36,459 bases of DNA from Thermodesulfovibrionales bacterium (GCA_030018605.1 JASEHP010000001.1:1-36459), one strand, 5' to 3'. Shown: positions 1,426-19,464, numbered from the stretch's first letter. Notes: generated by a model from the sequence alone, not told the origin. Made by a program: numbers and translations.

Positions 1426-1692
1426 CTAAGAAGCGCCTGCGCCTTCTTCGGAAGCGTTCACATCCGCCCCTTCGAGGCTGTAATAAGAAAGATAGACTCC
1501 GCGCGCGCCTTCCACATCTTTGAGCGTATCGAGCTCCTTCTTCATTTCGGCAGGGGTGTCCCGCTCTATAAGGAAAACGACCTTTTCCTCCTTGAGGTCT
1601 GTTACCTCTATCTTCCTTTTCTTCAGGTCGTTTACGACTACCTCCACATGTCCCTCGTCATGTGCCTCAATATAACCGCTTGCTACAAGCAT
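1426..1692 (-). CDS. napD: NapD-like TAT-proofreading chaperone
   Basis: 88 aa, with a NapD-like pattern (hydrophobic N-terminal strand, VEV, ...VVFLIE..., ...LKDVEGARGVYLSYYS). It is the last gene after napG and napH. Confidence 0.7.
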   Translation of the reverse strand: MLVASGYIEAHDEGHVEVVVNDLKKRKIEVTDLKEEKVVFLIERDTPAEMKKELDTLKDVEGARGVYLSYYSLEGADVNASEEGAGAS

Positions 1693-1712
1693 GGATTACC
1701 TCCCCGTAATTT

Positions 1713-1740
1713 GAGTTATGAGTGATGAGTTTTGAGTTCA
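1713..1740. repeat. Tandem heptamer array GAGTTAT GAGTGAT GAGTTTT GAGTTCA (4 units)
   Basis: Read directly in the napH-napD intergenic spacer, just upstream of the napD ribosome-binding site (on the minus strand). Confidence 0.9.
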
Positions 1741-1774
1741 CCCATCAATTAAAAAATCTATAACTAACCGCCAG

Positions 1775-2635
1775 TTATTTAAGTGATAACTTTACCAGTT
1801 TCCCTTTTGTCTCACAGCCCTCTGCACACCTGCCGCAGTAGATGCAGTTTATATCTCTGAGTCCGGGTTGGTCAATGTGTCGGGCTATTTTCACGTTCAT
1901 ATAACATAATCTATCACAGAGGTTGCACTCGCCGCACTCTCCCGGGTAGTATTTGAGTTTAAGGAGACTTACCTTATTAAACAATCCGTAAGTCTTTCCA
2001 ACAGGGCATAATACCCTGCACCATGTCCTCGGGAATATGTATTCAAAGACAAGCAGAAAGACTATAACCCCGCCTGAATATACAAGCACCGAAGGCTCAA
2101 ACGGCAGATTAAGGGCAAGAAAAACACCGCCTGTAATGAATCTAAAAAAGTTTGTGAGATGAGAGATATAGTTTGTAAAGAACGGGATGCCTAACAGTCC
2201 TGAAACAACAAGCAGTCCGGCTGCTATCCCATAACCAATCTTTGGTGATGCCTTGACCTTTACCTTTGACCAGTTTTTGAATCCGTCCACAATCTCAAAA
2301 AGGAAATCCATGGGGCATACCCAGCCGCAGAATGCCCTGCCGAATATGAGATAAATGCCAATGATTGGAACAACTGCGATTAGGGTTGTAGTTGTAAAAT
2401 CCTTTGATGCTGCCAGACTCTCAAAATAAGCAAATACATCAATGAGCTTTACAAACCATCTCGCCAGAGAACCTGAGAGTCCGCCAACCAGCGCCTTTAC
2501 ACGAAAAAACTGCAACAAAAAGAATATTAGGACGCTGAACATCACAAAACGCCTGAGATTGGATAGCTTCAGTAATGAGTTCGGAGTTCGGAGTTCGGAG
2601 TTTAGTGTCTCTTTATCTTTTAACTCATAACTCAT
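1775..2635 (-). CDS. napH: NapH-type membrane-bound polyferredoxin (quinol dehydrogenase membrane subunit)
   Basis: Several TM helices, two CX3CP motifs (CGWVCP, CRVLCP), and two C-terminal CX2CX2CX3C clusters (CGECNLCDRLC, CIYCGRCAEGC). The ATG at 2635 has AGGAG 9 nt upstream and follows the napG stop. The tracked GTG at 2671 is an alternative start. Confidence 0.85.
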   Translation of the reverse strand: MSYELKDKETLNSELRTPNSLLKLSNLRRFVMFSVLIFFLLQFFRVKALVGGLSGSLARWFVKLIDVFAYFESLAASKDFTTTTLIAVVPIIGIYLIFGRAFCGWVCPMDFLFEIVDGFKNWSKVKVKASPKIGYGIAAGLLVVSGLLGIPFFTNYISHLTNFFRFITGGVFLALNLPFEPSVLVYSGGVIVFLLVFEYIFPRTWCRVLCPVGKTYGLFNKVSLLKLKYYPGECGECNLCDRLCYMNVKIARHIDQPGLRDINCIYCGRCAEGCETKGKLVKLSLK

Positions 2636-2649
2636 AACTCTTGACTCCT
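2577..2649. repeat. Two heptamer arrays in inverted orientation: (GAGTTCG)x3 + GAGTTTA, a 17-nt spacer, then (AACTCAT)x2 AACTCTT GACTCCT
   Basis: Read directly. The arrays lie at the napG/napH junction, in the first ~20 codons of napH, and encode MSYEL...SELRTPNS. Confidence 0.9.
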
Positions 2650-2657
2650 GACTGTCT

Positions 2658-3428
2658 TTAACGGTATTCACGTTCTACCAATCTCCCCTTTGCCATAATC
2701 TGGGGCAGATTCTGTCCGTAAACAATGTTGTATCTCTCCTCGTTGGACATTGCAAGCAGTCTCTTAAACTCATCCACATATGGCGTTTTAACTTTCTCAT
2801 ACTGTCTTTCGGTAATCACCTTTATAGCAGAACCGCCGAGCGGGCAGTATTTGACACAGAGGCCGCAGCCGACGCAGTTTTCATTTATATACGGCTGGTT
2901 GCCCCATTCGCCGTTGTAAAAATCAAAGATATTTGCGCCCATAGGACATGCCTTGCTGCATGAAAGACAGACATCGCCGTTCCAGCCAAAACAGAGGCCG
3001 AAATCAATAAGCGCCATTCCCATTGTAACTTTCTCTTTTTTGAGGTTTTTCAGAGCGTCTGTTGGACAATGCTTGGGACACTCCATGCACAGTTCACAAG
3101 GGAAATCCCTCATGTCCTTGATATACGGCGTGCCGAAGTTTCTTATGTCTTTGATTCCGGCAACTGCAATGGCGTCGTATTTCATCGTATGGCATACATT
3201 CACGCACACGCCGCAGCTTATGCACTTTGCCCTGAACTCTTTTTCAGGCAAAGCGCCCGGCGGCCTTATAATGCCGCCGACCTCTATATTCGGAAGAGGA
3301 CCCTCGAATTCTTCCTTAGCTGCGTAAGCATTCCTTTCCAAAAGATAAAAAGGGCTGCCTATTACAGCAGCGCTGCCTGTTATCAGCGATGCCTTCAAAA
3401 AATCTCTTCTGGTGAAATGATTCTGCAC
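2658..3428 (-). CDS. napG: NapG-type periplasmic ferredoxin with four [4Fe-4S] motifs (TAT-exported)
   Basis: Twin-arginine signal (TRRDFLKASLITGSAA) and four Cys clusters: CISCGVCVNVC, CELCMECPKHCP, CLSCSKACP, CVGCGLCVKYCP. Directly upstream of napH. Confidence 0.85.
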   Translation of the reverse strand: MQNHFTRRDFLKASLITGSAAVIGSPFYLLERNAYAAKEEFEGPLPNIEVGGIIRPPGALPEKEFRAKCISCGVCVNVCHTMKYDAIAVAGIKDIRNFGTPYIKDMRDFPCELCMECPKHCPTDALKNLKKEKVTMGMALIDFGLCFGWNGDVCLSCSKACPMGANIFDFYNGEWGNQPYINENCVGCGLCVKYCPLGGSAIKVITERQYEKVKTPYVDEFKRLLAMSNEERYNIVYGQNLPQIMAKGRLVEREYR

Positions 3429-3443
3429 AGCCCTTACAGCGCT

Positions 3444-4382
3444 TTATTTTTTCTCAGGGGCAGCGCTGCCTTTTGCCTTATCTTTCCCGCTGTCCTTTAT
3501 GCCCTTTGAGGCAAGGTATTTGTCCACTTCCGCCTTGTTAATTTTAACCTTGTACATCTTTTTTATATCCTGCAGATATTTGTCTAATATCTCCTTCTGC
3601 TTCTCCTGCAGCAGAACCCTTCTAATATCTTCCTTTATATTGTTGATGTCAACATTTTTGCCTTTTTTCCTGTCAGTAACCTTGATAATGTGATAGCCGA
3701 ATTCGGTCTTGACAGGCTGGCTTACATCGCCCTTCTTCAATGCCCTGATGGCATTGTTGAACTCAGGCGGCATTTTGCCATCCTCGAAGGAGCCGAGATC
3801 GCCGCCGAGCGCTGCACTCTGTTTGTCTTCAGACAGCTCTTTTGCCACCTTTGCAAAATCCTCACCTTTTTTAATCCGCTCATGCGCCTTCTTTATAGTC
3901 GCCTCGGATTTGGTCATGATATGGCTCAACCGGATTTGTTCGGGAGATGCTAACTCGCCCATATTCTTCTTGTAATACTCTTTTATCTCGCTGTCGGAAA
4001 CCTTAACCTTCTGCGACAGCTCTTTTTCGAGAAGCATCTGTATTATGGTGATCTTTTTATAGTATTCGAGCTTTTTCTGAAGGGCGCTGTCCTTGTCTAT
4101 GCCTTTTTTTACGGCCTCCTGGTGCAGGGCTTCCTTGTTTGCCATGTCCTCGAGGAAACGCATAAACTGGTTGGAATCCTGCAAAAATGCCTCCCGTACA
4201 TCCTCCGGCATACTCTGAAGCTCTTTCTCAATATCATCTTTGGTTATGCCGATTTCATTCAGTTTGACCAGCGCTGTCCCGGTTTGCTTGCCGGGGTCAG
4301 CCTTCTTTGGCTGCTCGCCTTCCTTTTTGGCGCATGAAGCTATAAGCAAAAGACTAACAAAAAACAATAAAAACTTTTTCAT
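3444..4382 (-). CDS. Parvulin-type peptidyl-prolyl cis-trans isomerase lipoprotein (PrsA/SurA/PpiD-like)
   Basis: Lipobox (LLLIASC), a long helical chaperone-like region, then a parvulin core (RLSHIM...GGDLGSF...FGYHIIKV). Confidence 0.85.
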   Translation of the reverse strand: MKKFLLFFVSLLLIASCAKKEGEQPKKADPGKQTGTALVKLNEIGITKDDIEKELQSMPEDVREAFLQDSNQFMRFLEDMANKEALHQEAVKKGIDKDSALQKKLEYYKKITIIQMLLEKELSQKVKVSDSEIKEYYKKNMGELASPEQIRLSHIMTKSEATIKKAHERIKKGEDFAKVAKELSEDKQSAALGGDLGSFEDGKMPPEFNNAIRALKKGDVSQPVKTEFGYHIIKVTDRKKGKNVDINNIKEDIRRVLLQEKQKEILDKYLQDIKKMYKVKINKAEVDKYLASKGIKDSGKDKAKGSAAPEKK

Positions 4383-4513
4383 CCATCCTCCTGTTTAATT
4401 TTTTTGTTCTTCAGGCCATTAAAACCACATATTATATTATAACCCATTGAAGTTATCTAAACAAATCAGCTATTGCATCAATCCGTCTCCTGTTGAGTTT
4501 TTATCCATCAAGC

Positions 4514-5458
4514 TTACTCTTCTGCTGTCTTCAGACGAATGGCGTCATAATGCAGCCCCTGTTCTTCGTAAAGTACAGACAGAGCCGCTCTGATTAGTTT
4601 TGCCTCTTTGCTGGCAGGACCCTTAATCTCATCAATAATTGCAAGCGCCTTTCTGTAATACATTTCGCTCTCTATATATTTCTTCTGTGTATGATAATTG
4701 GCGGCAATGCCAATCAATGTCTTTACATAATCAATATGCGCGATGCCAACGGCATTCTCTATGATATGCATTGCTCTTTTATAATACTGCTCTGCCTCTT
4801 CAAACATCTTCATAGTCCTGTGCATCCCAGCAAACAAATACAGCGCTTCTGCCATCTCTGCGCCGTATGGATTGCCATGCGACTCAAGCATCTGTATAAC
4901 CGCTTTAAGCGATAGTTCCGCTTCTCTGAACATGGCCCTGATAATATATAGTTCTGCGCGATGAATTAAAATATCTGCAACTCCGGGATATTTTATGCTC
5001 TCGCGGTTCAGCGCCATAGGATCTAACCCTTTTATGGCAAATGCTTTCATCAGCACAGTCTCTGCCTGCCTGAATAATTTGTCCGCCTTTGTGTATTGCC
5101 GTAATCCCATATAAATCCTCGCCTGCAAAGCATATGCAAGGGCGGCATTCAGATGAACATCTCCGAAATCCTGCGTTGCTGTTTCCAATGCCTTTGTAGA
5201 AGTCTCAAGGGCGCAGGCAAGTTTGCCTGCTTTGCGCAGAGCCTCAGCGGTCTCATATAACTTCTTCCAGTTATCAACCTTTGCCTGCCCAATATCTTCC
5301 GGCGCAGGAGCAGGATTTCCACCTGCAAGATATACCCCGCAGGCAACTGCCTCTATAGGATCTTTCTCCTGATTTACAGGTGAGGGTACTTCTCCTGCAT
5401 AAACTGTATTGCCAAACAAAACAAATAACAACCCCACCAAAATCCCTGAAAATCTCAC
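4514..5458 (-). CDS. Secreted TPR-repeat protein
   Basis: N-terminal signal peptide (ILVGLLFVLFGNTVYA). Repeated A/Y/L-rich 34-residue-like helical repeats (e.g. ...EAEQYYKRAMHI..., ...ESEMYYRKALAI...). Confidence 0.75.
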   Translation of the reverse strand: MRFSGILVGLLFVLFGNTVYAGEVPSPVNQEKDPIEAVACGVYLAGGNPAPAPEDIGQAKVDNWKKLYETAEALRKAGKLACALETSTKALETATQDFGDVHLNAALAYALQARIYMGLRQYTKADKLFRQAETVLMKAFAIKGLDPMALNRESIKYPGVADILIHRAELYIIRAMFREAELSLKAVIQMLESHGNPYGAEMAEALYLFAGMHRTMKMFEEAEQYYKRAMHIIENAVGIAHIDYVKTLIGIAANYHTQKKYIESEMYYRKALAIIDEIKGPASKEAKLIRAALSVLYEEQGLHYDAIRLKTAEE

Positions 5459-5542
5459 ATCAAACCTCCTGCGGTTCTATCTTGCATTGCCTCGGCTATC
5501 CGTCAGCAAAAGCTACGTATTTTATCACACCCGGAGTTAAAC

Positions 5543-5579
5543 ACAAATAAAAGGGGACACGCAAAAACCGTGTCCCCTT
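5543..5579 (-). terminator. Rho-independent terminator downstream of the NapA-like gene
   Basis: Perfect 11-bp stem AAGGGGACACG / CGTGTCCCCTT with a 7-nt loop, followed on the minus strand by TTATTTGTGT. It sits 20 nt after the stop codon. Confidence 0.8.
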
Positions 5580-5598
5580 ATTATGTCATACACTACGG

Positions 5599-8500
5599 CT
5601 ATACAACAATCTTTCCGGGCTCCGCCTGTCTGCCCTTTGTTTTTCCCTTGTATATCTTTACTGCAAACATCTTGAAGTCTGCCTGGAAGCTGAACGGATC
5701 AAAGGCATCCCTCATTATCATGTTGATGAGCTTGAACTCGTCAAACCACGGGATAAAGACATAGTCATGTCTCGGACCGCCGGTCGCTTTCTGGACATCA
5801 AGTATCTTAGCCGGAAGCTCTATCTTACCTCTCGGCGATTCAACGATAACCGAATCACCATTCTTAATATTGAGCTTCTTAGCAAGTATCTCGTTGATCT
5901 CGACATAAGCGCCGGGAACTGCGCGTGTCAGTTCAGGAACCCTTGCGGTCATGGAGCCTGAGTGCCAGTGCTCAACAACACGGCCTGTACATGCGCCGTA
6001 TTTGTAATCGGTGGTGTCAATGATCAGAAGCTTGCTTCCGTCAGCCTTTGTGTATTCATGCTTAAGGTTATGGAATTCAGCAGGGCTTAATGCTATGTTC
6101 TTCAGGGCATTCATGTCCTTGTTCGGATCTCCGACAACATTGACAGTGTATTTTGCCTTCACATCAAAGGGTAGTGCGCTATTCTCATTTACCTTGCTGG
6201 GATTAAAGGCCCTCTCAAGAACCTCAACGGTATTATGCCTTACAAACTGTTTGCCGTCGAACTTGCATGCCCACCATGGGTTTGCCCATGCTACAGCCCT
6301 GCCGTCCCAGCCCGGAGCCTTTCTGGTTTTTCCGTCCGGAGTCTTGATATCTACCATGCCGTTGATAAAGGCATTAGAGTTGTAGAAGCTTGCATACCAT
6401 CCGGAAGGAAGGTTTTCCGCCCTGTGGTATTCCGCATCATTCTTCATGTCATTGATGTTTTTCTCAAGCCATGAGCCATAGACCGGATTAAACTCCTTCA
6501 TATTCTTCATATAGAAGGCGGTCTTACCGTCTATATGCGGGTCATATGGATAGGCATATTGTATGCTGGAGACGTACTTGTCGTATCTCTTCTTTACATC
6601 GGCATTGGTGTGATACTCTGCGGGCAGGGGAATCCTGTAGCCGTGGTTCTGCTCAAGGAGCATCTTCCTGTTCATACCGCTAAAGTCATAGCCTGTGCCC
6701 TTGGAGAGGGCCATGAGTTCTTCCCAAATGTTGGTGGAGAACTTTCTGTTCCAGTCCTTTGTTTTGCCTGCCTCAATAGTCTTTTTGAGCCAGTCTGCGC
6801 CGTCGTATTCCGCCGGCCAGAACATGGAGACATGCCCTTTAGGGACGAGTCCCTTTTCCTCAAGCCTTCTCATGATACATGCAAAGATGGTGTGGTCAGG
6901 GAGTGTATCTCCATAAGGCTCAATGACCTGTTTGACAATCTGATACCTTCTCTCAAGGTTTCCGTATATGAATTCCTTTTCATACCATGAGGATGCGCCG
7001 AGCACCACATCAGAAACCATTGTGGTTGCATTCGGGAATGCCTCAAGGGTTACGGTAAGCGGCCATGCCGCTCCTTTGTGAGCGCCTGCCATTGCAAGCC
7101 TGTAGGGCCATGAATATGGAAGGCTCTGCCCGGAGTTAACCGTGGAGTTTATCATTATCTTTATCTGTCCTGCTCCAAGCCTTCTGAACATCTCAACTGT
7201 ATGGGGACCGGGCTTGTCGTGGATCTTGATTTTATCAAGTTCAGCTTTTATTGCTTCTGCTGACATGCCTTTCTTCTTCAAATAAGCTTCAGCCCTGCCT
7301 TTCCATATACCTTCAACTGCTGCCCTGTGCAGAGGATTAGCAACAAGCCTTCCATAAGGAAGCGCATGGCACAATGCTCCCGGCGCCCTGATTCCGCCGC
7401 AGGCATTGGGCTGTCCTGTAAAGCTGAAGGAATGCCTTCCGGGTTTTACTGTCTGTCCTGTGATAAGGTTGATCATGTGTAAAGAGGCGTTTGTCCATGT
7501 TCCTTGAAGCTTCTGATTAACGCCCATACACCATGCAGACAGTGTGTATCCTTCAGCATACCATTTAGCAGCAAGCCTCACTGCATCTGGCCCGCTAATC
7601 TTCTTCCATGTCCTTGTTGCTTTGTCATAGAGGAGAGGGGATTCACCCTCAAATATCGCATCGGAGACCTTTTCAGGTTTGTAGTCTTCAAGGAACTTCA
7701 GGAATACGGCAAAACCCTTGTAGAGGTCTTTCATTACATCTTCCTCTGAGGCATATTTGTTTTTCAGGTTTGGATAAGTCTTTCTCGGCTCTGCTGAATA
7801 TGTCAAATCCCAGGCTGCGTCCCTCGTGCCGCCATATGTGGTCTTTACCCATGTCTTCTTCACATCCTCGTGTATTCCAAAGCTTACATGTCTTTCAATG
7901 AACTTCTTGTCAAGGTATTTCCACTTTGCATCAACTGTGCCTTTCTCCACATCATACTTTGCGCCGTCAAGCTCATGGGTAATAACATACGCTATTGAGT
8001 TGAGAAGCACGAGGTCCCTGCCTGTTGCAAACGGAAGCCATAAATCGGCAATTGTTCCGGAACGGGTCTTTCTCGGGTCAGCGAGGATTACCTTTACATT
8101 TGGTTTTTTTGCCTTCAATGCTGCAATCCTGTTGAAGATTATGGGATGTCCTTCTGCTGTGTTACTTCCTATCAGGAAGAATGTATCGGCAGTTTTGCCA
8201 AAATCAGGGTCTGGAACATCAATATCGTCAAGGCTTCCGTAAGGCTCGTCTTTTCCAAATGTATAAAGATAGCCCACGACTGCGGATGCCATACACATTC
8301 TCGGCTGCCCTTCTACCGCGTTATTTGCAAGCATGCCGCCGCCCTTGAGGGTTTTATTCATAATGTGGGTCTCTTCCGTTCCTGCCTGACCGCTGCCGTA
8401 ATATGCAACACTGTGTTTGCCGTTTTCTTTGACTGTCTTTTCCACTGCATCAGCCACAAACTCTATGGCATCTTCCCACGGTATGAGAACAAAATTCTCT

Positions 8501-8934
8501 TTCAGGTCAACCTCAGATGGTTTTATCCCATGCGGATCTTTTGTGTTTTTCCCTTCAAGAACCCTCGGGCAGTCCTTCAGGTCAGGCTTTCCTGTTTTGG
8601 GATTAATCAATTCCTTTCTTACATAAGCGCCCTTTGGCCTGTCCTTGTACATGAGCGCCTTATGGACATAAAATCCTTTTGTGCAGAGGACGCCCCTGTT
8701 CACAGGGCTCTTGAGGTCTCCTTTAATTGCAATAACCTTTGTTACCTTGCCTGCTGCGTCAACTTCACAGTCTGCTATCATAGTGCACCCAACTGCACAA
8801 TATCTGCACTGTCCCACTGGAAATGTTTTTATAGAACCAGCAGCAAACAGCATTTCCGGCTTAGCAATCCCGGCCCCAGCGGCAGCAGCGGTTATAGCGC
8901 TTGCCCTTAGAAAATCTCTTCTACTGAGTTTCAT
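5599..8934 (-). CDS. napA: Periplasmic molybdopterin oxidoreductase, NapA-like catalytic subunit, unusually long (1111 aa)
   Basis: TAT signal ([19 protein letters not shown]) and an N-terminal CX2CX3C...C FeS motif (CRYCAVGC...[11 protein letters not shown]). There is a NapA-type Mo-ligand segment ([20 protein letters not shown]). C-terminal NapA signatures are present: [20 protein letters not shown] and [20 protein letters not shown]. These motifs align to E. coli NapA as I recall it, but the protein is about 280 aa longer. Confidence 0.85.
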   Translation of the reverse strand: [1111 protein letters not shown]

Positions 8935-8952
8935 CTATGCCTCCTTTAGTTT

Positions 8953-9477
8953 TTACTTCTTGCCTTTTTTACTGGTTTTGCCAGCCGTTGGCTGTATGGT
9001 AAAACCGTCAGCGGTTATTGCATCTCCGAATGGAGAGTAATCGCCATTGGCAGCTATTGCCATTACTTTTAATTCTACGTCAACTTTTTCCTGAGGCGCC
9101 TTCCATTCAAATGCCCATGACCTGCGCTCAGAACCTTCTAATGTCTGTGTCAGATAGGAGTCTGAAAGCTGGGTGTTTTTCTTGTCAGATACTATTAATT
9201 CTCCTGCAGACGCCTTAACTGAAAATCCGCCCTGCACCTCACTCATGCTTTTTGTTTTGCAGTCTACACTCACGGTAAGTTTATATGTCATTCCCGGCTC
9301 ATATTGTTTTGGAATGCCTGTGACTTTAATAGTGGCTGGCGCGCTTGCTCCAGTGTGGCATGTATAGCATTCAAAATTTGGAGCGCTATTATTACTCGTG
9401 AAGCCTATTGAACCGAATAAGAGGGTAATGCTGAACAATACAATTAAATACATAACAGTCTTTTTAGTCTTTGCCAT
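8953..9477 (-). CDS. Secreted monohaem c-type cytochrome with a beta-rich domain, in the NapB position
   Basis: Single CXXCH (CYTCH) right after a signal peptide or anchor. The rest is strand-like (TYKLTVSV, GGFSVKA, WAFEWKAP, VELKVMAIAANGD). The ATG at 9477 has AAGGGGTGG upstream. The stop is 18 nt before the napA-like start. Confidence 0.7.
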   Translation of the reverse strand: MAKTKKTVMYLIVLFSITLLFGSIGFTSNNSAPNFECYTCHTGASAPATIKVTGIPKQYEPGMTYKLTVSVDCKTKSMSEVQGGFSVKASAGELIVSDKKNTQLSDSYLTQTLEGSERRSWAFEWKAPQEKVDVELKVMAIAANGDYSPFGDAITADGFTIQPTAGKTSKKGKK

Positions 9478-9580
9478 ATCCACCCCTTTTCTCCCGGAGA
9501 CACTCACAAAAGGTCTTAAGCGGGACGTTCTCAAATCAGGCTTTCAGATATTTTCTTTTGTAAGGGTCTCTTTTGAGTTT

Positions 9581-9612
9581 TTAAAAATAAAAGGGGGAGC
9601 TTGCGCTCCCCC
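9581..9612 (-). terminator. Rho-independent terminator downstream of the octahaem cytochrome gene
   Basis: GGGGGAGC / GCTCCCCC stem with a 4-nt loop, followed on the minus strand by TTTTATTTTT. It sits 15 nt after the stop codon. Confidence 0.8.
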
Positions 9613-9626
9613 AAATCTATCATTTA

Positions 9627-11396
9627 CTACTTTCCTGCTGGCATTGCTGCTGCTGCTCTTTTGTCAGCAATTGCCTTGTTCAGGATGTCAATGCCTTTCC
9701 ATGAAAGAACAACTGACCTTGCGAGTGTTACCTTGGCGTTCTCAATGTTATGGAAACCATCGGAATTCTCGCCGGTCCACCATTCCCAGTACATGTGCGC
9801 ATCTTCGTGGATCTTTCTAACTTCATTAAGTGTCTTCACATCAACACCCCAGTCTTTTGCGCGCTGGAATGCATCAACAAGTTCCCTCAGCCAGACCTCT
9901 GCCTTTCTCATGTTCTGCTTGACGTAGTTCTTCGCAGAGTCTGCGGCATAGCCGGCATCATGTGATGTCCAGTCCGGATGGCAGGTAAGGCATGGCTTCC
10001 ACTCCATCGCCCTTGGGGAAACATGGAAGTGGGAAGAATAGGTCTTGCCATCCTTGCCCTTCTTCTTGCCTGCTGTATGGCAGGTTGTGCAGGTTGCTCC
10101 AGCCTTTGCGTGAGTAGAGTTGTAGAATGCCTCTGCCTCAGGGTGCTGCGACTTCCAGAGCTTTGCGCCTGTGATATAGTGGGCTAAATCAAAATATTTC
10201 CACTTTTCAAGGTGCTTTTTAAAGGTCTCATCAACAATCTTATGCTTTTCAACCTTTGCCAGTCCCTTGAACGGGAAGTGGTTGGTCCTTCTGTCAGTTG
10301 CAAAGTCAAGGGCTACAGGCGGCTTGCCCCATTCAGACTTTTCATAGTCAAAGTGGAGACCGCAGTTGTACTCAACATGGCACTGACCGCACTGAAGTAT
10401 TGGGTCATACTTGCTGAGGATTGCAATCTTCCTCTCATGTCCGCGGAATCCGAGGCCGTCTTTATTGCTGTAAACCTTGATATCTGCCTTTCCGGGGTAG
10501 CCCTCATGCCAGAGTGTGTCGGTCTGGGTTGTGAGCGCCTCTATAAGAGCGTCTCTCACAATCCTCGGTTTTGCCGCATGCGGGTCATGGCAATGAATAC
10601 ATGGCAGAGCGTTCCTCAGATACTTCACCGCATTGTAAGCAGGATTTCCTGCTCTGCTGATGTCAGAGGTCTTTGGTGAAGGATCGCCCATGTACGGCCA
10701 TGCAAGATGGTCGTCAGATGATTTACATTTTAAACAAACAGGAACTGCCGCAGGAGCTGTCCTTTCCTGAAATGCCTTCTTGGGAGCCTTGAGGTCAACA
10801 TCAGGATATGCATCATAGAGGACATCCCATGCCTTGGGGGCTATGCCGCTCTTGTCTATTACATACTTGAAACCATTCTTTGACTTGAACCTTCCGCCGT
10901 AAGACCTGTCATTAATCAGATGGTCAATAAGCATATACTTGTGGCTTCTGGTCTCATTGTGGCTGATTTCAAAGGCATAAGGTCTGATGAGGGTTTCCCA
11001 GAAAGGCGAGCGGGACTTGGGGTCGCCCTTGTCAAACTGAGCCTTTTTCTCATAGTTGTGACCGATGAAACTTGCGTGCTGGTCTTTGTGACACTTGCCG
11101 CATGCCTCGTGGTCAGTGTTGGTTGAAGGTCTGCTCTTCACGTCTGCAAGGTGTTTGTCAATGCCATCATGACAGTTGATGCAGTTTACAGTCTTGTGGA
11201 TTCCATTTGTGTGGAAATCCTTAATAAGGGCATGGCATGCGTAGCATGTCTCTACCTTTACATCTTTTACTGCAGCTTTTGCTGCGGCTTTTGCAGGGAC
11301 AGCTTTCTTCTGGGCATCAGCACTCGTATAATAGACGCCTCCTACTATGACAAGCGCCAGAACTAAAATAAATGATACATAAATCTTTTTACTCAT
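9627..11396 (-). CDS. Octahaem cytochrome c nitrite reductase (ONR/TvNiR-like, NrfA-related)
   Basis: Seven CXXCH motifs (CYACH, CINCH, CGKCH, CIHCH, CGQCH, CTTCH, CLTCH) plus one CXXCK (CLKCK) as the fourth motif. NrfA-like segments are CLKCKSSD and CGQCHVEYNC. N-terminal signal/anchor. The ATG at 11396 has AAGGAGG 8 nt upstream; the tracked start at 11447 is less likely. Confidence 0.85.
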   Translation of the reverse strand: MSKKIYVSFILVLALVIVGGVYYTSADAQKKAVPAKAAAKAAVKDVKVETCYACHALIKDFHTNGIHKTVNCINCHDGIDKHLADVKSRPSTNTDHEACGKCHKDQHASFIGHNYEKKAQFDKGDPKSRSPFWETLIRPYAFEISHNETRSHKYMLIDHLINDRSYGGRFKSKNGFKYVIDKSGIAPKAWDVLYDAYPDVDLKAPKKAFQERTAPAAVPVCLKCKSSDDHLAWPYMGDPSPKTSDISRAGNPAYNAVKYLRNALPCIHCHDPHAAKPRIVRDALIEALTTQTDTLWHEGYPGKADIKVYSNKDGLGFRGHERKIAILSKYDPILQCGQCHVEYNCGLHFDYEKSEWGKPPVALDFATDRRTNHFPFKGLAKVEKHKIVDETFKKHLEKWKYFDLAHYITGAKLWKSQHPEAEAFYNSTHAKAGATCTTCHTAGKKKGKDGKTYSSHFHVSPRAMEWKPCLTCHPDWTSHDAGYAADSAKNYVKQNMRKAEVWLRELVDAFQRAKDWGVDVKTLNEVRKIHEDAHMYWEWWTGENSDGFHNIENAKVTLARSVVLSWKGIDILNKAIADKRAAAAMPAGK

Positions 11397-11617
11397 CCAA
11401 AATACCTCCTTATTGAAGTGATGCATCTTTTTTGCTGCTTGGACCATTTTACTGCTTTGACCATTTTGTTGTGCTTCTCACCCCCCTTATCTTATTTGTG
11501 GTAATCAATTTTATAATAATAGCACATTAATATAATTTTTGGGTTAGTAAATGTGCGGTTAATTTGTGTAAAGATTCGGTAAAAGTGTTTTTAGGAGAAA
11601 ACGTCTGAAAATGCGGA

Positions 11618-12295
11618 CTACTGTCTGAATTTGTATCCGGCGCCGGACACAGTCAAAATGTACTCCGGCTCGGAAGGATTTTTTTCTATCTTATGCCTGA
11701 GATGCTGGATATGGACGTCTATGACTCTGCTCCATGAATATATTTCAGATTCCCTCCATATCTTTTTTCTGATAAATTGCCTGCTGATTACTTCGCCTCT
11801 GTTTGTGATAAAGAGATGCAGCAGTTCATATTCCTTCGGGGTGAGTTCAATCTCTTTGCCTTTGACTTTAACTGTGTGAGCGCTGAAATTAACTTCCAGA
11901 TTATTGATTACGATTGTGCTGTCAACAGGCATGGTCCTTTTGAGGCACGCTCTTATTCTCGCTATGAGTTCAAGCGTTTCAAAAGGTTTTACTATGTAAT
12001 CGTCAGCGCCGCTTTCAAAGCCCATTACCTTATCAAAGACGCTGTCTTTTGCTGTGAGCATAATAATGGGTATTCTGGGATACTGGTCTTTCAATAACCT
12101 GCATATCTGGATTCCGTCGCTGTCAGGGAGCATGAGGTCAAGTATTATAATATCCGGCAGCTGATTATTCAGTATATCGTGCGCTTCTGCCCAATTGGCG
12201 GCTGTGACAGCATCAAACCCGTACAACTCAAAGTTTGCCTTAAGCACTTTTAATATGTCAGGGTCATCATCTACAACAAGCAGTTGTTTTTTCAT
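11618..12295 (-). CDS. OmpR/PhoB-family response regulator
   Basis: Receiver domain (LVVDDDPDI...IILDLMLPDSDG...LTAK) plus a winged-helix C-terminus (LTPKEYELL...EYILTVSGAGYKF). Overlaps the kinase gene stop. Confidence 0.9.
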   Translation of the reverse strand: MKKQLLVVDDDPDILKVLKANFELYGFDAVTAANWAEAHDILNNQLPDIIILDLMLPDSDGIQICRLLKDQYPRIPIIMLTAKDSVFDKVMGFESGADDYIVKPFETLELIARIRACLKRTMPVDSTIVINNLEVNFSAHTVKVKGKEIELTPKEYELLHLFITNRGEVISRQFIRKKIWRESEIYSWSRVIDVHIQHLRHKIEKNPSEPEYILTVSGAGYKFRQ

Positions 12296-13943
12296 CCAGA
12301 AAAACCTCTTTTCTTGTCATCGGTACAGTGAACCAGAAGCGGCTGCCTTTGCCTTCAGCAGTCTTTAGCCCTATCTCTCCGTTATGCGCTTCTATTATGC
12401 CTTTGCATATTGCAAGTCCCAGCCCTGTGCCGTCTTTCACGCCTCTTGAGTAGAATTGTCTGAATACCATCTCTTTTTCAGCCTCAGCGATACCATATCC
12501 CCTGTCCTCTACGCTTGCATTTGCATATCCGTTCGTTCCGGCGAGCGTGACAATGATATCGGATGATTCAGGACTGAAGTTTAACGCATTGGACAGAAGA
12601 TTTGTCAGCACCTGCTTTATCCTGTCTTCATCAGCATGAACTGTTACATCCTCTCCCCTGAGTTCTATATTGACTTTTTTCCCCTCCGCCAATGACCTGA
12701 AGCCTGTGATAACCTCATCAAAAACATCGTTCAGGTTTATTTCTTTAAAATGCATTTCAAATTCACCAAGTTCTATCCGCTCGTAGTCAATCACGTTATT
12801 TACCAGCCTTATCAGCCTCTCGGCATTATTTTTTATTACCTCAAAAAATACTTTAAGGTCTTCCTCATTCTCTTTTCCGTGCATTGAAAGTCTTACGGAG
12901 AGGTAATCCATTGCTCCTTTTATGGACGTAAGGGGCGTCCTTAATTCGTGTGAGATATTTGCAATAAAAGCGGATTTTGTTTTATTTAATCTCAACAGGC
13001 TCTCGTTTTTTTCTGTAAGTTCCCTCGTAGCTGTGATTATCTTATCATGGAGACACCTATGGTATTCATCAATAGACTTTGCCATGTCTATAAAAGATTT
13101 GCTTAACTCTTCAAGTTCGTCATTTGTTTTGATAACCGGGATATCAGGATTGCCGTCTTTTGAGAAAGCAAGCATGAGGGTTCTAATTTTTTTTATGGGG
13201 CTTATGACAAGTCGTTTTGTTGTCATAAACAACACGGCGATGAGCACCGCAACGGTAATAATGCTGCCGAACAGCATGTATTTTCTGTCAGAATGTATTA
13301 CATTGAATGCATAGTCCATCGGGATGGATACACTTATGGCTCCTCTTATGTCGCCGACATTATAGCCCTGCTTGTCATGGCAGTGAAGACATGCCTTTTC
13401 AACATAAAGCGGGGCAATGTATCTGAAGTAATAAGAGCGTCCAATCTTTTCAACAGTTGATGAGTCTTTTAGTTTTTTTGTCTCAAAGTCTTGAAGCGCT
13501 TTCTTTTCAAAGGCGTCAGGGGCATTTTCGGGATTCATGAGTTTAAGGCTGGTTATATGAAACCAGAAGAGCCCTTCTTTCGCAGCGTACATGGAAAGTT
13601 CTTTTGTGACCATGGCAGGATTTCTCTTAACATACCTCATGCCCTCGGTATCGACTATCTCTGATTTCATGCCTTTAAGATAAGGGTTTGGCTTTATCCA
13701 TGGCAGCCTTTCCACAAATACCCCTCCGTGGTCAGCGATCCACCTTCTTGTAATTACCAGCTGCTGGAACAGCGCCTTTGCCTGCATCTCTATCTGAGTG
13801 AGCACAAGCCTCTCGTGTCTTTTGGAAATGACGATAAGTGTTATTCCCATTACGGCAGCAAGGATTATGATTGTGGAGATTATATACTTCAGGCTAAGGT
13901 TTATCCGCATCTGAAACATCCATCGGAACAGCTGTTCCGGCAA
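12267..13943 (-). CDS. Sensor histidine kinase with an extracytoplasmic c-haem (CXXCH) sensor domain, HAMP, HisKA and HATPase domains
   Basis: One TM, then a ~190-aa domain ending in CLHCHDKQGYNVGDIRGAISVSIP (DUF3365-like by recollection), then a second TM. H-box SHELRTPL, with G-boxes in the C-terminus. The exact start is uncertain (TTG 13943, ATG 13919 or 13910; no clear SD). Confidence 0.85.
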   Translation of the reverse strand: MPEQLFRWMFQMRINLSLKYIISTIIILAAVMGITLIVISKRHERLVLTQIEMQAKALFQQLVITRRWIADHGGVFVERLPWIKPNPYLKGMKSEIVDTEGMRYVKRNPAMVTKELSMYAAKEGLFWFHITSLKLMNPENAPDAFEKKALQDFETKKLKDSSTVEKIGRSYYFRYIAPLYVEKACLHCHDKQGYNVGDIRGAISVSIPMDYAFNVIHSDRKYMLFGSIITVAVLIAVLFMTTKRLVISPIKKIRTLMLAFSKDGNPDIPVIKTNDELEELSKSFIDMAKSIDEYHRCLHDKIITATRELTEKNESLLRLNKTKSAFIANISHELRTPLTSIKGAMDYLSVRLSMHGKENEEDLKVFFEVIKNNAERLIRLVNNVIDYERIELGEFEMHFKEINLNDVFDEVITGFRSLAEGKKVNIELRGEDVTVHADEDRIKQVLTNLLSNALNFSPESSDIIVTLAGTNGYANASVEDRGYGIAEAEKEMVFRQFYSRGVKDGTGLGLAICKGIIEAHNGEIGLKTAEGKGSRFWFTVPMTRKEVFLDEKTTACCR

Positions 13944-14702: not shown

Positions 14703-15161
14703 TCATACTCCCATCTCGGAAAGCACATTGCCCTTAACCCCTATGATAGTTTCATCAAGCGGGATGTCTTTTCCAGACAGCTTTATCGCTTCCTTTAAGA
14801 CAGCGGTCATACCGCTGCAACACGGAACTTCCATCCTGAGACATGTTACGCTCTTGATCGGGATATTGCTGAATATCTCGGTGAACTTTTCAACATATAA
14901 TTGGGCATTGTCCAGCTTAGGACAGCCTATCAGAAGTTTCCTGTCTTTAAGAAATCTCTCATGAAAGTCTTGCACTGTAAATGCTGTGCAGTCAGCAGCC
15001 ACGAGCAGGTCTGCATTATCCAGAAAGGGTATAACTGTACCCATGAGCTTAATTTGTATGGGCCAGTGAGCAAGCCTATAGTCCTTCTTTTCCTCTGATT
15101 TGCCTGCCAGTTCTCCGATAGAAGAGCATGACGGGCATCCTTCAATTATATTTGGTTTCAT
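14703..15161 (-). CDS. Cys-rich, probably Fe-S-binding protein (WPxQ...AADC...CPKLD...MEVPCC family; function unknown)
   Basis: Motifs: CPSC near the N-terminus, HWPIQIKL, LLVAADCTAF, LIGCPKLD, MEVPCCSG. The ATG at 15161 has AAGGAGG 5 nt upstream. The tracked start at 15176 is a TTG that lies within that SD region. Confidence 0.65.
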   Translation of the reverse strand: MKPNIIEGCPSCSSIGELAGKSEEKKDYRLAHWPIQIKLMGTVIPFLDNADLLVAADCTAFTVQDFHERFLKDRKLLIGCPKLDNAQLYVEKFTEIFSNIPIKSVTCLRMEVPCCSGMTAVLKEAIKLSGKDIPLDETIIGVKGNVLSEMGV

Positions 15162-15219
15162 GTTAACCTCCTTCAAAAGTTATCTTGAGTTTAAGTTATA
15201 GCAATTCAGGGAATAACAG

Positions 15220-15235
15220 TATGACGTGCATCATA
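15220..15235. promoter_or_regulatory. Candidate Crp/Fnr-family operator TATGA-N6-TCATA, site 1
   Basis: TATGACGTGCATCATA. Its centre is about 40 bp upstream of the start predicted from a minus-strand TGcTATAAC extended -10 (15195-15203). Confidence 0.5.
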
Positions 15236-15261
15236 TTAAGAACAGAAATAATATCGGCAGT

Positions 15262-15279
15262 TTATGACTTTAATCATAA
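15262..15279. promoter_or_regulatory. Candidate Crp/Fnr-family operator TTATGA-N6-TCATAA, site 2
   Basis: TTATGACTTTAATCATAA. Its centre is about 40 bp upstream of the start predicted from a plus-strand TGaTATAAT extended -10 (15296-15304). Confidence 0.5.
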
Positions 15280-15336
15280 CACGGGAATTGTTTGATGATA
15301 TAATTTAGAATATCAACTGAAATTCAGGAGGTTTTT

Positions 15337-15744
15337 ATGGACAGATTTGTGAAAAGCTTTATTTTAATGAGCATCGTGTATCTTGCAATTGCCACAGTGC
15401 TTGGGATATTCATGCTTGGCTATCCGTCTTTGATGCAGTTTAAGTTTGTGCACTCTCATCTTATGATGCTCGGATGGGTTTCGATGATGATCTACGGTGT
15501 CGGCTATCACATCCTTCCGAAATTTTCAGGGAGGCTATTAAAGAGCCCGAAGCTCGGAGAGTTGCAGTTCTGGCTTGCGAATATAGGGCTTATGGGGATG
15601 CTGGCGTTTTATACGCTAGGGACATACAATCCTTCAGGTTTATACAGGGGTCTTGTTATTGCATCAGGGCTTATTGAGGCGTTGTCAATATCCCTGTTTT
15701 TTTACAATATAATTGCAACGTTGTATGCAAAAGTGGCGGAGTAG
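15337..15744 (+). CDS. 4-TM membrane protein resembling the haem-ligand helices of haem-copper oxidase subunit I
   Basis: AGGAGG SD. Four hydrophobic helices. FVHSHLMMLGWVSMMIYGVGYHILPKFSGRLL parallels the [31 protein letters not shown] region of aa3 oxidase subunit I (recalled sequence). Confidence 0.6.
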   Translation: MDRFVKSFILMSIVYLAIATVLGIFMLGYPSLMQFKFVHSHLMMLGWVSMMIYGVGYHILPKFSGRLLKSPKLGELQFWLANIGLMGMLAFYTLGTYNPSGLYRGLVIASGLIEALSISLFFYNIIATLYAKVAE

Positions 15745-15761
15745 TATTTGCTTTTTAAAAA

Positions 15762-15877
15762 TGTCATTCTGGCTTGACCAGTCGTAGCGACTCTCAGCGA
15801 AGACTCGCATCGAGAATCTTTCAGAAGAATTCTCACCTCGGGGAGTCGCTGAGGAGACCGAACGAGTTGGAATGACA
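15762..15877. repeat. Hairpin (MITE-like) element between convergent genes
   Basis: Termini TGTCATTC / GAATGACA. Nested internal stems GCGACTC / GAGTCGC and GAGAAT / ATTCTC. Confidence 0.6.
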
Positions 15878-15887
15878 GAATAGTTCA

Positions 15888-16565
15888 TTACCCGCAAAGT
15901 GCTTTAAGCTTATTTATATCCTTGATGGTGATCTTTCCGCCTTTTTCTGAGACGATGCCGAGCTTTTTGAATTTCGACATCGTCCTTATCGAAGTCTCTA
16001 CTGTTGTGCCGACCATCTCGGCAATATCCTGCTTTGTAAGTTTCATGTCGATAGTAATGCTGCCGTCTCCGAGCGGCTCGGAGCCTGCTTTATCAGCGAG
16101 CTTTATGAGCATGGAGGCTATTCTTGATTCCACTTTTTCAACAGCGATGTTTTTCAACGCCTCATGAGAGCCTTTGATCCTGTCTCCGATATTCATAGCC
16201 ATGCAATACATAAGGTTGGGGAACCTGTCGAGTATGCGCATTAAGTTGCTTCGTGATATTTTTAAAAGCTCCGCGTCATCCATCGCAACGGCATTTGCAG
16301 GGTAGGGGAAGCCTCTCATCACGGCAACTCCTCCGAAAAAATCCATTGGCAAGATGATTTCAAGTATGATTTCTCTTCCGCTCTGTGAGAGCTTGGTAAT
16401 CTTGACTTTGCCCTTAGTTACAACATAAAGCCAGTCAGACGGATCTCCCTCGGAGAATATAACCTCTTTTTTCTTAAATTTGGCAGGGATGAGGTAGGGT
16501 TTTACTTCCTCCATGTCGGAAGAATTTAACGTGCCGGATATCGGAATTTTTTTAAAGTCAATCAT
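15888..16565 (-). CDS. Crp/Fnr-family transcriptional regulator (no FNR-type N-terminal Cys cluster)
   Basis: cNMP-binding-like beta-roll (FSEGDPSDWLYVVTKGKVKI) and a C-terminal HTH (TKQDIAEMVGTTVETSIRTMSKFKKLGIV). Confidence 0.9.
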   Translation of the reverse strand: MIDFKKIPISGTLNSSDMEEVKPYLIPAKFKKKEVIFSEGDPSDWLYVVTKGKVKITKLSQSGREIILEIILPMDFFGGVAVMRGFPYPANAVAMDDAELLKISRSNLMRILDRFPNLMYCMAMNIGDRIKGSHEALKNIAVEKVESRIASMLIKLADKAGSEPLGDGSITIDMKLTKQDIAEMVGTTVETSIRTMSKFKKLGIVSEKGGKITIKDINKLKALCG

Positions 16566-18795: not shown

Positions 18796-18876
18796 TAGGG
18801 GTTTAGCAGGTTTAAAAAGCATGTAGCAGGTAGGCTTTAACTTTTAGCCGTTGTTATCTGCCATTGGGGGCAGGGT

Positions 18877-19089
18877 TTATAAAAGTTTCTTGAATTCTTC
18901 AATGGTAAGTCCAGCATCTTTTACAATACCTGCCATTGTAAAGGCATCAACAGGATTTGCTCTCGGAATAGTGGTAATCCTTTCGCCATTTGTCATTGTG
19001 ATATGTTTACCTTCTTTTGCAATCCAAAATCCTGCTTTTTGAAATGCCCTCACTGCTCGCTGGTGGTTTATTCCAGACAATTTAGGCAT
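18877..19089 (-). CDS. hicA: HicA-family (YcfA-like) toxin
   Basis: 70 aa. The ...RAVRAFQKAGFWIAKEGKHITMTNGERITTIPRANPV... pattern is typical of HicA mRNA interferases. Confidence 0.8.
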   Translation of the reverse strand: MPKLSGINHQRAVRAFQKAGFWIAKEGKHITMTNGERITTIPRANPVDAFTMAGIVKDAGLTIEEFKKLL

Positions 19090-19282
19090 AGGCTACTTCT
19101 ACATAACGAGACTTTTTCCCTTTGCTTAGTCCCTCGACAGTCTCTAAATATGACTGTATGGCATCTTTAATGTTTTCCAATGCTTCCTCTTCTGTTTTCC
19201 CTTGAGACCAGCAGCCAGGTAAGCCTGGCACCCAAACAGAATAACCTTCTTCTGTTTTTCTGAGATTTACTTTATATCTCAT
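19082..19282 (-). CDS. hicB: HicB-family (UPF0150) antitoxin
   Basis: 66 aa with EEGYSVWVPGLPGCWSQGKTEEEALENIKDAIQSYLE. Overlaps hicA by 8 nt. Confidence 0.8.
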   Translation of the reverse strand: MRYKVNLRKTEEGYSVWVPGLPGCWSQGKTEEEALENIKDAIQSYLETVEGLSKGKKSRYVEVAYA

Positions 19283-19464
19283 ACAGCACCTCCAAAACCT
19301 TTAGTGGTTTTTCTTTATTTTACATCATAAGGCTAAATTTGTTTTCTAATGAACGTTGATTAATCTCAAACACGCCGTCATCTGTCGCTACGGACAAGTC
19401 CTTCCTTATTAACGGTTGTCCCTATTTCCCAAGCTCTCTCGTAAATTTGATTGTTATGAATCAT

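Follow-up and report, generated by a model that had tools for sequence, protein, structure and literature searches.

The window analysed here, a stretch of 36,459 nt from a Thermodesulfovibrionales bacterium (Nitrospirota; GCA_030018605.1 JASEHP010000001.1:1-36459), carries ten genes, all on the minus strand between positions 1426 and 13943 (about 12.5 kb), which can be assigned with good confidence to nitrate-to-ammonium respiration of the kind known from Desulfurivibrio and Trichlorobacter. They encode a two-component system, an octahaem nitrite reductase (ONR), a small monohaem cytochrome here called c1, a long form of the nitrate reductase NapA, two probable maturation factors, and NapG, NapH and NapD. 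Mapping of open reading frames (ORFs), scans of the window proteins with Pfam and NCBIfam profiles, and a six-frame scan for CXXCH and CXXCK haem motifs across the 36 kb gave the following genes, listed in the order in which they lie on their strand:

12267..13943, minus strand: sensor histidine kinase, with a transmembrane (TM) segment, a putatively periplasmic Tll0287-like haem-c domain (CLHCH), a second TM segment, and HAMP, HisKA and HATPase domains
11618..12295, minus strand: OmpR/PhoB-type response regulator (Response_reg and Trans_reg_C), its start overlapping the kinase stop by 29 nt
9627..11396, minus strand: ONR of the TvNiR/TaNiR family, 589 aa from the ATG at 11396; the listed ORF runs to 11447 (606 aa)
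8953..9476, minus strand: monohaem c-type cytochrome c1, about 173 aa from the ATG at 9476; the listed ORF runs to 9534 (193 aa)
5599..8934, minus strand: long-form NapA, 1111 aa, with a twin-arginine translocation (Tat) signal, a [4Fe-4S] motif and molybdenum-bis(molybdopterin guanine dinucleotide) (Mo-bisMGD) domains
4514..5458, minus strand: secreted TPR protein (TPR_12 and related models)
3444..4382, minus strand: parvulin-type peptidyl-prolyl isomerase (PPIase) lipoprotein, PrsA/SurA-like (Rotamase models; lipobox LIASC)
2658..3428, minus strand: NapG, Tat-exported periplasmic ferredoxin with four [4Fe-4S] motifs
1775..2671, minus strand: NapH, membrane quinol dehydrogenase subunit, overlapping napG by 14 nt
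1426..1692, minus strand: divergent NapD, 88 aa, putative Tat proofreading chaperone for NapA

A sequence-only reading of this DNA had named the ten genes and located their haem motifs, and both were confirmed by the ORF map and the profile scans. Eight haem motifs lie in the large cytochrome, and the small ORF upstream of napA and the kinase have one CXXCH each. Nothing else in the 36 kb looks like a genuine haem-c ORF, the only further matches being two chance CXXCK in short frames of non-coding appearance. The same scan bears out the earlier statement that NapB, NapC/NirT and NrfH are missing, as none of these, nor NrfB, was found within the 36-kb window.

The likely start of the large cytochrome is the ATG at 11396, which is preceded by the ribosome-binding site AAGGAGG. 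Its haem motifs are, in order, CYACH, CINCH, CGKCH, CLKCK, CIHCH, CGQCH, CTTCH and CLTCH, that is, seven CXXCH and a CLKCK at the fourth (catalytic) position. The ORF matches the Cytochrom_C552 family in Pfam/NCBIfam, and in a search against the PDB it aligned end to end with TvNiR from Thioalkalivibrio nitratireducens (E = 1e-118, residues 60-594) and with the octahaem nitrite reductase 8rv0 (E = 7e-116), placing it within the nitrite reductases as the sequence-only reading had supposed; pentahaem NrfAs matched at 1e-18 or weaker. With TvNiR (PDB 2ot4, 3sxq) it shares the eight haems, the CXXCK at the fourth position and the Tyr-Cys motif EYNC, which is kept after haem 6 (CGQCHVEYNC, containing VEYNC), whereas its N-terminal hydrophobic helix is longer and followed by an Ala/Lys/Pro linker, and the genomic partners of TvNiR differ. 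Assignment as a pentahaem NrfA was rejected because of the eight haems, a score of 57 bits with NF008339 (cut-off 595) and the lack of NrfH and NrfB in the window, and the protein is classified from its sequence as an ONR, related to NrfA but not an NrfA. The N-terminal helix comprises 19 hydrophobic residues and is of TM length, which together with the linker speaks for tethering to the membrane and not for a signal peptide that is cleaved off; membrane anchoring was likewise predicted for the nitrite enzyme of Desulfurivibrio alkaliphilus (PMC5516251).

The 1111-aa NapA begins with a Tat signal (MKLSRRDFLRA...; matches to TAT_signal PF10518 and TIGR01409), contains the domains PF04879, PF00384 and PF01568, and carries four insertions, about 300 aa in total, relative to solved NapAs. 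In the PDB it is matched best by D. desulfuricans NapA, a monomeric enzyme (E = 1.5e-120), to whose cluster motif the segment CRYCAVGC...C aligns, and the segments prmCMASAV (with the Mo-ligating Cys), WCMGVNQ and ACGGIR align with their counterparts in the structure 2jio; the active-site residues of the D. desulfuricans enzyme are Cys140/Met141, Met308 and Arg354. Among NCBIfam models, NapA NF010055 scores best (434.8 bits, cut-off 904), followed by Fdh-alpha with 233 bits, and TIGR01706 gave 404.6 bits against a cut-off of 930. Because the NapA model leads by about 200 bits yet stays under its cut-off, the protein belongs to a divergent clade of the Nap branch, which is also where published trees place long NapA (PMC5516251, PMC12142623). 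NCBIfam and PDB matches and these trees agree in grouping the molybdoenzyme with NapA and not with other molybdoenzymes, in line with its earlier designation as a NapA homologue.

NapG, with a TAT_signal match (TRRDFLK) and four Cys motifs that can be read in its sequence, scores best with the NCBIfam models NapG NF007012 (103.6 bits, cut-off 269) and MauM/NapG. NapH is best described by NapH/MauN TIGR02163 (117.2 bits, cut-off 213) and by Pfam Fer4_5, and displays the CX3CP pair CGWVCP and CRVLCP together with a C-terminal [4Fe-4S] pair (CGECNLCDRLC and CIYCGRCAEGC). The window copy of NapD remains below the cut-off of 28 for PF03927 (16.2 bits, E = 0.011); Pfam NapD is the top match in five of five NapD orthologues (best 2.8e-7), E. 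coli NapD 2jsx is the top PDB profile match (E = 0.016), and the window protein is 55% identical to the napD product of D. alkaliphilus.

The small cytochrome c1, whose true start is likely the ATG at 9476, ends 18 nt before the start of napA with no terminator between the two genes, and carries a single CXXCH (CYTCH). It matches only the NCBIfam family choice-of-anchor V NF041895 (96.8 bits, cut-off 42). An AlphaFold2 model (predicted local distance difference test score 85) consists of an N-terminal helix and a β-sandwich with the F-spondin reeler domain 2zot as best PDB fold (E = 5e-7), and c1 is predicted to be a choice-of-anchor V/reeler-like β-sandwich. It had also been considered as a haem domain of the DOMON or ethylbenzene-dehydrogenase-gamma-like type, which was dropped as the fold search gave reeler and no such family matched. 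What c1 shares with NapB is its small size, its nature as a periplasmic c-type cytochrome and its place in a nap operon. It does not belong to the NapB family, as it has one CXXCH and one haem instead of two, no match to PF03892 and a predicted all-β reeler fold. An alignment of 29 homologues shows C59 and H60 of the CXXCH to be invariant and C56 nearly so, and several β-strand residues are nearly invariant. With the c1 profile, more than 6000 cluster representatives are found, and 94 of the best 150 have a CXXCH at the same N-terminal position; only about 18 matches score at the level of the nap-linked subfamily. The residue His130, present in 27 of the 29 aligned sequences and kept in P0121, a relative with 91% identity to c1, was rejected as a firm distal ligand, being Gln in the window copy (positions 9145-9147, codon 130 of the 193-aa ORF; LTHT to LTQT) and in one distant homologue. 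Gln130 could be a functional variant, or a sign that His130 is not the distal haem ligand. No earlier description of the c1 protein was found in the literature.

Relatives were collected by a scan taking one genome per species, which yielded 47 loci with a long NapA, and for these the window proteins were compared by BLAST with all locus ORFs and haem motifs were counted. The long NapA family includes dozens of proteins of 1107-1116 aa with 75-91% identity in Nitrospirota metagenome-assembled genomes (MAGs; Thermodesulfovibrionales and Dissulfurispiraceae), and extends to Desulfurivibrio (72-73%), Candidatus Kryptonium (69%) and Crenarchaeota, for example Pyrolobus fumarii (1250 aa, 40%). It is evident from this survey that the gene order described earlier for the window is kept: of the 43 loci with enough upstream sequence, 42 have c1 directly before long napA; napG, napH and napD follow napA in 31 of 31 loci with NapD at the operon end; and c1 is itself directly preceded by an eight-haem ORF in 30 of 38 loci, to which L036, with a fragmented ONR, adds a thirty-first. 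The one exception for c1 is L040, from a Bacteroidota MAG, where a small tetrahaem ORF takes its position; L027, which seemed to be devoid of c1, proved to be an artefact of an over-extended napA ORF. The order ONR-c1-napA-napG-napH-napD recurs across the 47 species-level loci, from at least three phyla, and the window holds a genuine, conserved and laterally distributed cluster for the dissimilatory reduction of nitrate to ammonium (DNRA). Even at 58% NapA identity, locus L053 keeps the Tll0287-type kinase, the regulator, ONR, c1, NapA, NapG, NapH and a small ORF, and the closest well-assembled relative, L035 (89% NapA identity), has ONR, c1, NapA, the TPR protein, ResB, the PPIase, five unrelated cargo genes, NapG, NapH and NapD. 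The cargo that splits the nap operon of this relative (L035:17124-20713) comprises genes for an ArsR-type regulator, an SBF/Acr3-like transporter, a methyltransferase, a chromate transporter and a DUF134 protein.

NapB was found in none of the long-NapA loci surveyed. The one canonical nap locus examined, L055 with a 923-aa NapA, has NapB and no c1, and c1 and NapB never occur together in the loci examined. In L055 (8001-15155) an ONR gene lies directly upstream of canonical napA-napG-napH-napB-napD, with no NrfH, so that ONR-before-nap clustering exists with both types of NapA. Moreover, c1 accompanies long NapA where no ONR is adjacent, namely in Desulfurivibrio, Kryptonia and Pyrolobus. The c1 homologue of Pyrolobus fumarii (E = 1.6e-42, one CXXCH) is encoded 1.3 kb upstream of the long NapA-NapG-NapH genes and passes Pfam Reeler by sequence (25.3, cut-off 21). 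The linkage to NapA without ONR, the Pyrolobus homologue and the lack of c1 in L055 tie c1 to NapA rather than to ONR. The Pyrolobus locus (L052:3219-13884) encodes NapG- and NapH-like proteins downstream of its 1250-aa NapA, and on the opposite strand an 859-aa eight-haem cytochrome; the long-Nap architecture predates, or has crossed, the divide between bacteria and archaea. Candidatus Kryptonium (L003:15224-18438, also L028 and L029) has, after napD, genes for a Rieske protein, a cytochrome b and an eight-haem 'Multi-haem_cyto' protein, followed by molybdenum-cofactor genes. This octahaem protein has a NapC/NirT-like N-terminus and is not an ONR homologue, and in this arrangement a long Nap is joined by a multihaem enzyme and a quinol oxidase in another manner.

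Apart from c1, the composition of the cluster, of which the sequence-only reading knew no described example, has already been reported from Desulfurivibrio (2017, 2025) and Trichlorobacter (2023–25). In D. alkaliphilus, nitrate reduction was assigned to a highly expressed napAGHD operon without napB, whose NapA was called 'a novel type' similar to that of Ca. Kryptonia, stated to have an unknown electron donor and interpreted as monomeric, and nitrite reduction to an NrfH-less, membrane-anchored NrfA-like enzyme highly expressed with nitrate; nrfH and nrfB were reported to be lacking altogether (Thorup et al. 2017, PMC5516251). For D. dismutans the nitrite enzyme was named as an octahaem nitrite reductase with a CXXCK motif and a homologue of Trichlorobacter ammonificans TaNiR (Front Microbiol 2025, PMC12142623). 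The proteome data of this strain give log2(S8/nitrate) values of -6.0 for NapA and -4.65 for ONR, corresponding to 65-fold and 25-fold higher levels with formate and nitrate, and in its Table S1 NapG, NapH and the c1 orthologue RS11650 were detected only in cells grown with formate and nitrate (PMC12142623). Desulfurivibrio and the window have in common the long NapA (1111 aa, 72-73% identity), NapG, NapH and NapD (52-68%), a c1 gene directly upstream of napA (46-49%) in an operon that the papers call napAGHD, the absence of NapB, NapC and NrfH, and a CXXCK octahaem nitrite reductase, with nitrate-induced transcript and protein in Desulfurivibrio. They differ in that the ONR of Desulfurivibrio is encoded at a separate locus and its nap locus has no Tll0287-type kinase, TPR protein or parvulin, whereas in the window everything lies in one 12.5-kb block of a Nitrospirota genome.

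Clustering of Nap and ONR is known from Trichlorobacter ammonificans, whose Nap–ONR (TaNiR) DNRA module is described in citing papers (Sorokin et al. 2023, as cited in PMC11972089 and PMC13390470). As far as these accounts go, T. ammonificans grows by DNRA with ONR as its only ammonifying nitrite reductase, and in T. lovleyi nap is immediately followed by the ONR gene, and it has been proposed that the two are functionally coupled. The clustering of ONR with nap, read as coupled periplasmic reduction of nitrate to ammonium, is by these accounts common to Trichlorobacter and the window, but the ONR gene of T. lovleyi follows nap and that of the window precedes nap and has its own terminator. 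No Trichlorobacter NapA was among the long-NapA relatives found, and the Nap of Trichlorobacter is probably of another type. The NapAGHB(F)LD system of Wolinella succinogenes and Campylobacter is a NapC-independent, NapGH-dependent Nap and resembles the window in its NapGH quinol-oxidising module, the lack of NapC and the position of napD at the operon end. This epsilonproteobacterial Nap has a NapA of normal length and a dihaem NapB, whereas the NapA of the window is about 300 aa longer and c1 takes the position of NapB in the gene order; nitrite reduction in these organisms is due to NrfHA at a separate locus.

By homology, the long-form NapA would reduce nitrate to nitrite at a Cys-ligated Mo-bisMGD site, ONR, as an octahaem CXXCK enzyme of the TvNiR family, would reduce nitrite to ammonium, NapH in the membrane and the Tat-exported iron-sulfur protein NapG would form a menaquinol dehydrogenase, and NapD would chaperone Tat export of NapA. 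Strict gene linkage, the expression of its orthologue in a relative and a distribution complementary to that of NapB suggest that c1 may be a dedicated carrier from NapG to NapA in the place of dihaem NapB. No other protein is as good a candidate for the donor of electrons to long NapA, and the most economical reading of c1 is that of a functional replacement of NapB, though it is no member of the NapB family. NapGH, directly or via c1, is a plausible electron source for ONR, and a quinol dehydrogenase encoded elsewhere in the genome is to be named equally. Tentatively, and with a chance that we put slightly short of even, c1 is proposed to be a small redox subunit that replaces NapB, transferring electrons received from NapG to NapA and perhaps further to the membrane-tethered ONR, and that together with the Tll0287-type kinase accompanying ONR it defines a distinct and ancient Nap architecture, c1-NapA(long)-NapGHD, in bacteria and Crenarchaeota.

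Several observations weigh against the reading of the cluster given here. NapA, NapG and NapH all score under their NCBIfam equivalog cut-offs, i.e. they are divergent family members; about one third of the wider choice-of-anchor V family lacks the CXXCH, so that the fold is not intrinsically that of a cytochrome; in the alignment of 29 sequences c1 has no conserved second axial (distal) haem ligand, and the nearly invariant His130 is a Gln in the window copy; c1 is not obviously stoichiometric with NapA in D. dismutans, where its relative intensity-based absolute quantification value is 1.9e-5 and that of NapA 4.5e-4; and ONR is encoded elsewhere in the genome of Desulfurivibrio and beside nrfHA in L056, which indicates that an electron link between Nap and ONR is not obligatory. 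The points concerning the haem ligand and the low abundance would fit a c1 that is not the redox partner of NapA but an ONR accessory, a protein that tethers long NapA to the membrane or assists its assembly, or a sensor, with a monomeric NapA that is fed directly by NapG as proposed for NapA of the D. desulfuricans type. They are joined by the monomeric D. desulfuricans enzyme being the best structural relative of long NapA, by the interpretation of NapA as monomeric by Thorup et al. (PMC5516251) and by the reeler/choice-of-anchor V fold being mostly a module of surface proteins. We nevertheless regard this explanation as less likely in view of the presence of c1 next to long NapA without an adjacent ONR, the invariance of the CXXCH in the nap-linked subfamily, the 18-nt terminator-free spacing to napA and the lack of c1 in L055, the single canonical nap locus looked at, where NapB is encoded.

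The proposed transfer from NapGH to ONR has to be weighed against an arrangement in which NapGH serves only c1 and NapA, and ONR is fed by a quinol-oxidising module outside the window (of NrfH/CymA type, a Rieske/cytochrome b complex or another membrane complex), so that the cluster would not be self-contained, a term of the sequence-only reading for which the 36 kb covered are too short a stretch. This arrangement, a serious contender even if we lean somewhat away from it, is favoured by the ONR gene directly following nrfH-nrfA in L056, by the Rieske, cytochrome b and different eight-haem cytochrome genes after napD in Kryptonia, by the separate ONR locus of Desulfurivibrio, by the hairpin that separates ONR transcriptionally from nap, and by a report of nrfH in a related Nitrospirota MAG. 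It is at odds with about 30 loci in which ONR adjoins c1-napAGHD and no quinol-oxidising module other than NapGH lies within ±10 kb of ONR, with the recurrence of ONR before a canonical napAGHBD operon in L055, and with D. alkaliphilus, reported without nrfH and nrfB (PMC5516251). A supply through NapGH is also favoured by the TM-length helix and flexible linker of ONR, which would keep the enzyme at the membrane. Far less probable than either of these is that the enzymes do not serve energy-conserving DNRA, with ONR detoxifying nitrite, hydroxylamine or nitric oxide (NO) or reducing sulfite and the long 'NapA' reducing another oxyanion. The literature does call the physiological role of ONR unclear, NrfA-type enzymes also turn over sulfite (cited in PMC5516251), long NapA lies under the NapA equivalog cut-off and L035 has arsenic- and chromate-type cargo genes inside the cluster, but two Desulfurivibrio species grow on nitrate forming ammonium with orthologous NapA and ONR strongly nitrate-induced (PMC5516251, PMC12142623), ONR is, in the accounts cited above, the sole ammonifying nitrite reductase of DNRA-growing T. 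ammonificans, and the active-site segments of NapA are kept.

When the ONR genes of L005-L051 were compared, two types of ONR were seen to fill the slot upstream of c1. One type of about 590 aa is found in the window, in L035 (81% identity) and in L004 (67%), and the other, of about 550 aa, is 41-51% identical to the former, whereas the adjacent NapAs are 75-89% identical. The occurrence of two divergent ONR types beside similar NapAs suggests that ONR was replaced within the cluster. In L036 (7340-9222) the ONR is split into three ORFs with 4, 1 and 2 haem motifs, which is due to a pseudogene or an assembly frameshift; a dihaem ORF of this locus that resembled NapB was recognized as a fragment of the split ONR.

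The domain PF11845 (Tll0287-like) of the sensor kinase was detected with 85.2 bits (cut-off 24.1), along with HAMP, HisKA and HATPase_c. A weak direct match to 5b82, the solved structure of Tll0287, brings the CLHCH of the kinase into line with the CXXCH of that protein. The haem-c domain is flanked by hydrophobic segments and would be periplasmic, between two TM helices. Among 24 related loci with at least 6 kb of flank on each side, 12 have a haem-c (Tll0287-type) kinase at most 10 kb away, and in these 12 the regulator is paired with it. Kinases of this type adjoin ONR genes in L004, L053, L054 and L056; L054 (Seleniivibrio, 3243-10491) encodes kinase, regulator, ONR, ResB and CcsA but no Nap, and L056 (5736-12540) nrfH, nrfA, ONR, regulator and kinase. 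The recurrence of the kinase with ONR in long-Nap clusters and in these two loci points to an ONR-associated regulator. On the basis of this linkage, the Tll0287-type kinase and the OmpR-type regulator may respond to NO, nitrite or the redox state as a signal in the periplasm, and activate expression of the units ONR and c1-napA.

A scan for terminators covered the first 17.5 kb of the window. The two intrinsic terminators proposed in the sequence-only reading (9581-9612 and 5543-5579) coincide with two hairpin-plus-T-run sites, which are the two strongest terminator-like sites in the scanned 17.5 kb:

9593..9612, minus strand: terminator-like hairpin GGGGGAGC-GCAA-GCTCCCCC followed by a T-run, 8 pairs, 15 nt after the ONR stop
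5551..5579, minus strand: terminator-like hairpin with an 11-bp stem and a T-run, 20 nt after the napA stop

The hairpin after ONR is identical in L035, and a hairpin with a T-run is present in about 26 of the 35 loci with a readable ONR-to-c1 spacer, supporting the transcription break after the nitrite reductase that had been claimed. As it recurs with differing sequences, this first break looks selected. At the position after napA a hairpin is seen in roughly a third of the related loci, L035 and L004 among them, and the break it would cause is more lineage-specific. To judge by its recurrent linkage, the strong hairpin after ONR would make ONR a unit of its own, probably with higher expression.

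The slot between napA and napG contains TPR-ResB-PPIase genes in L035, with a TPR orthologue of 62% identity followed by ResB and parvulin, and ResB-PPIase in L004, whereas in L054 ResB-CcsA genes follow ONR. Parvulin orthologues occupy the same slot in L004, L023 and L035. The ResB genes, encoding a subunit of the system II cytochrome c synthase, were located at L035:14323-15864 and L004:13456-14838, between the TPR/napA genes and parvulin; in the window no ResB or remnant of it was found in the 131-nt spacer between the TPR and parvulin genes (4383-4513) or elsewhere. There is a parallel in Wolinella, where NrfI is a dedicated CXXCK haem lyase. With ResB lying beside ONR or between napA and napG, the TPR/PPIase slot would seem to be a maturation module. 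The TPR protein is a probable maturation or assembly factor and the parvulin a probable periplasmic folding factor, and recurrent linkage suggests that both act in maturation, accompanied in relatives by the ResB haem-lyase subunit that is missing from the window.

Through DNRA, fixed nitrogen stays in an ecosystem and does not escape as gas, and Nitrospirota of the Thermodesulfovibrionales type abound in aquifers, sediments and paddy soils. In metagenome surveys, pentahaem nrfA and 'napAB' are the usual markers by which DNRA is scored, and published Nitrospirota annotations label such genes coarsely as napA, 'napAB' or nrfA. With a cluster that has neither canonical nrfA nor napAB, such organisms are easily mis-scored. 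Furthermore, the present survey names a specific candidate donor for the NapB-less long NapA, a question left open in the 2017 paper, and a candidate regulator of the ONR genes, though the reading of c1 and of the kinase is of specialist rather than broad interest.

The window contained no Rfam families or tRNAs, and a 670-nt region (18796-19464) with no ORF of at least 80 aa on either strand gave no Rfam or tRNA match. Directly downstream of napD lie a C-terminal fragment of a Mutator-family transposase (48-473), on the opposite strand an ORF resembling a helix-turn-helix transposase (506-1009), and a truncated thioredoxin/AhpC-like ORF (886-1347); in many relatives this position is occupied by regulator and kinase genes on the opposite strand. 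This edge of the island appears to have been rearranged by an insertion sequence element. A short way upstream of the kinase gene a regulator of the Crp/Fnr family is encoded (15888-16565), along with a 135-aa membrane ORF (15337-15744) that looks like part of subunit I of a cbb3/haem-copper oxidase, and an ORF of 157 aa (14703-15176) that is rich in Cys and has no family match. These three ORFs, at 14703-16565, may represent further redox- or NO-related regulation, and weak Crp homologues are also encoded near the cluster in L012, L018, L023 and L044.

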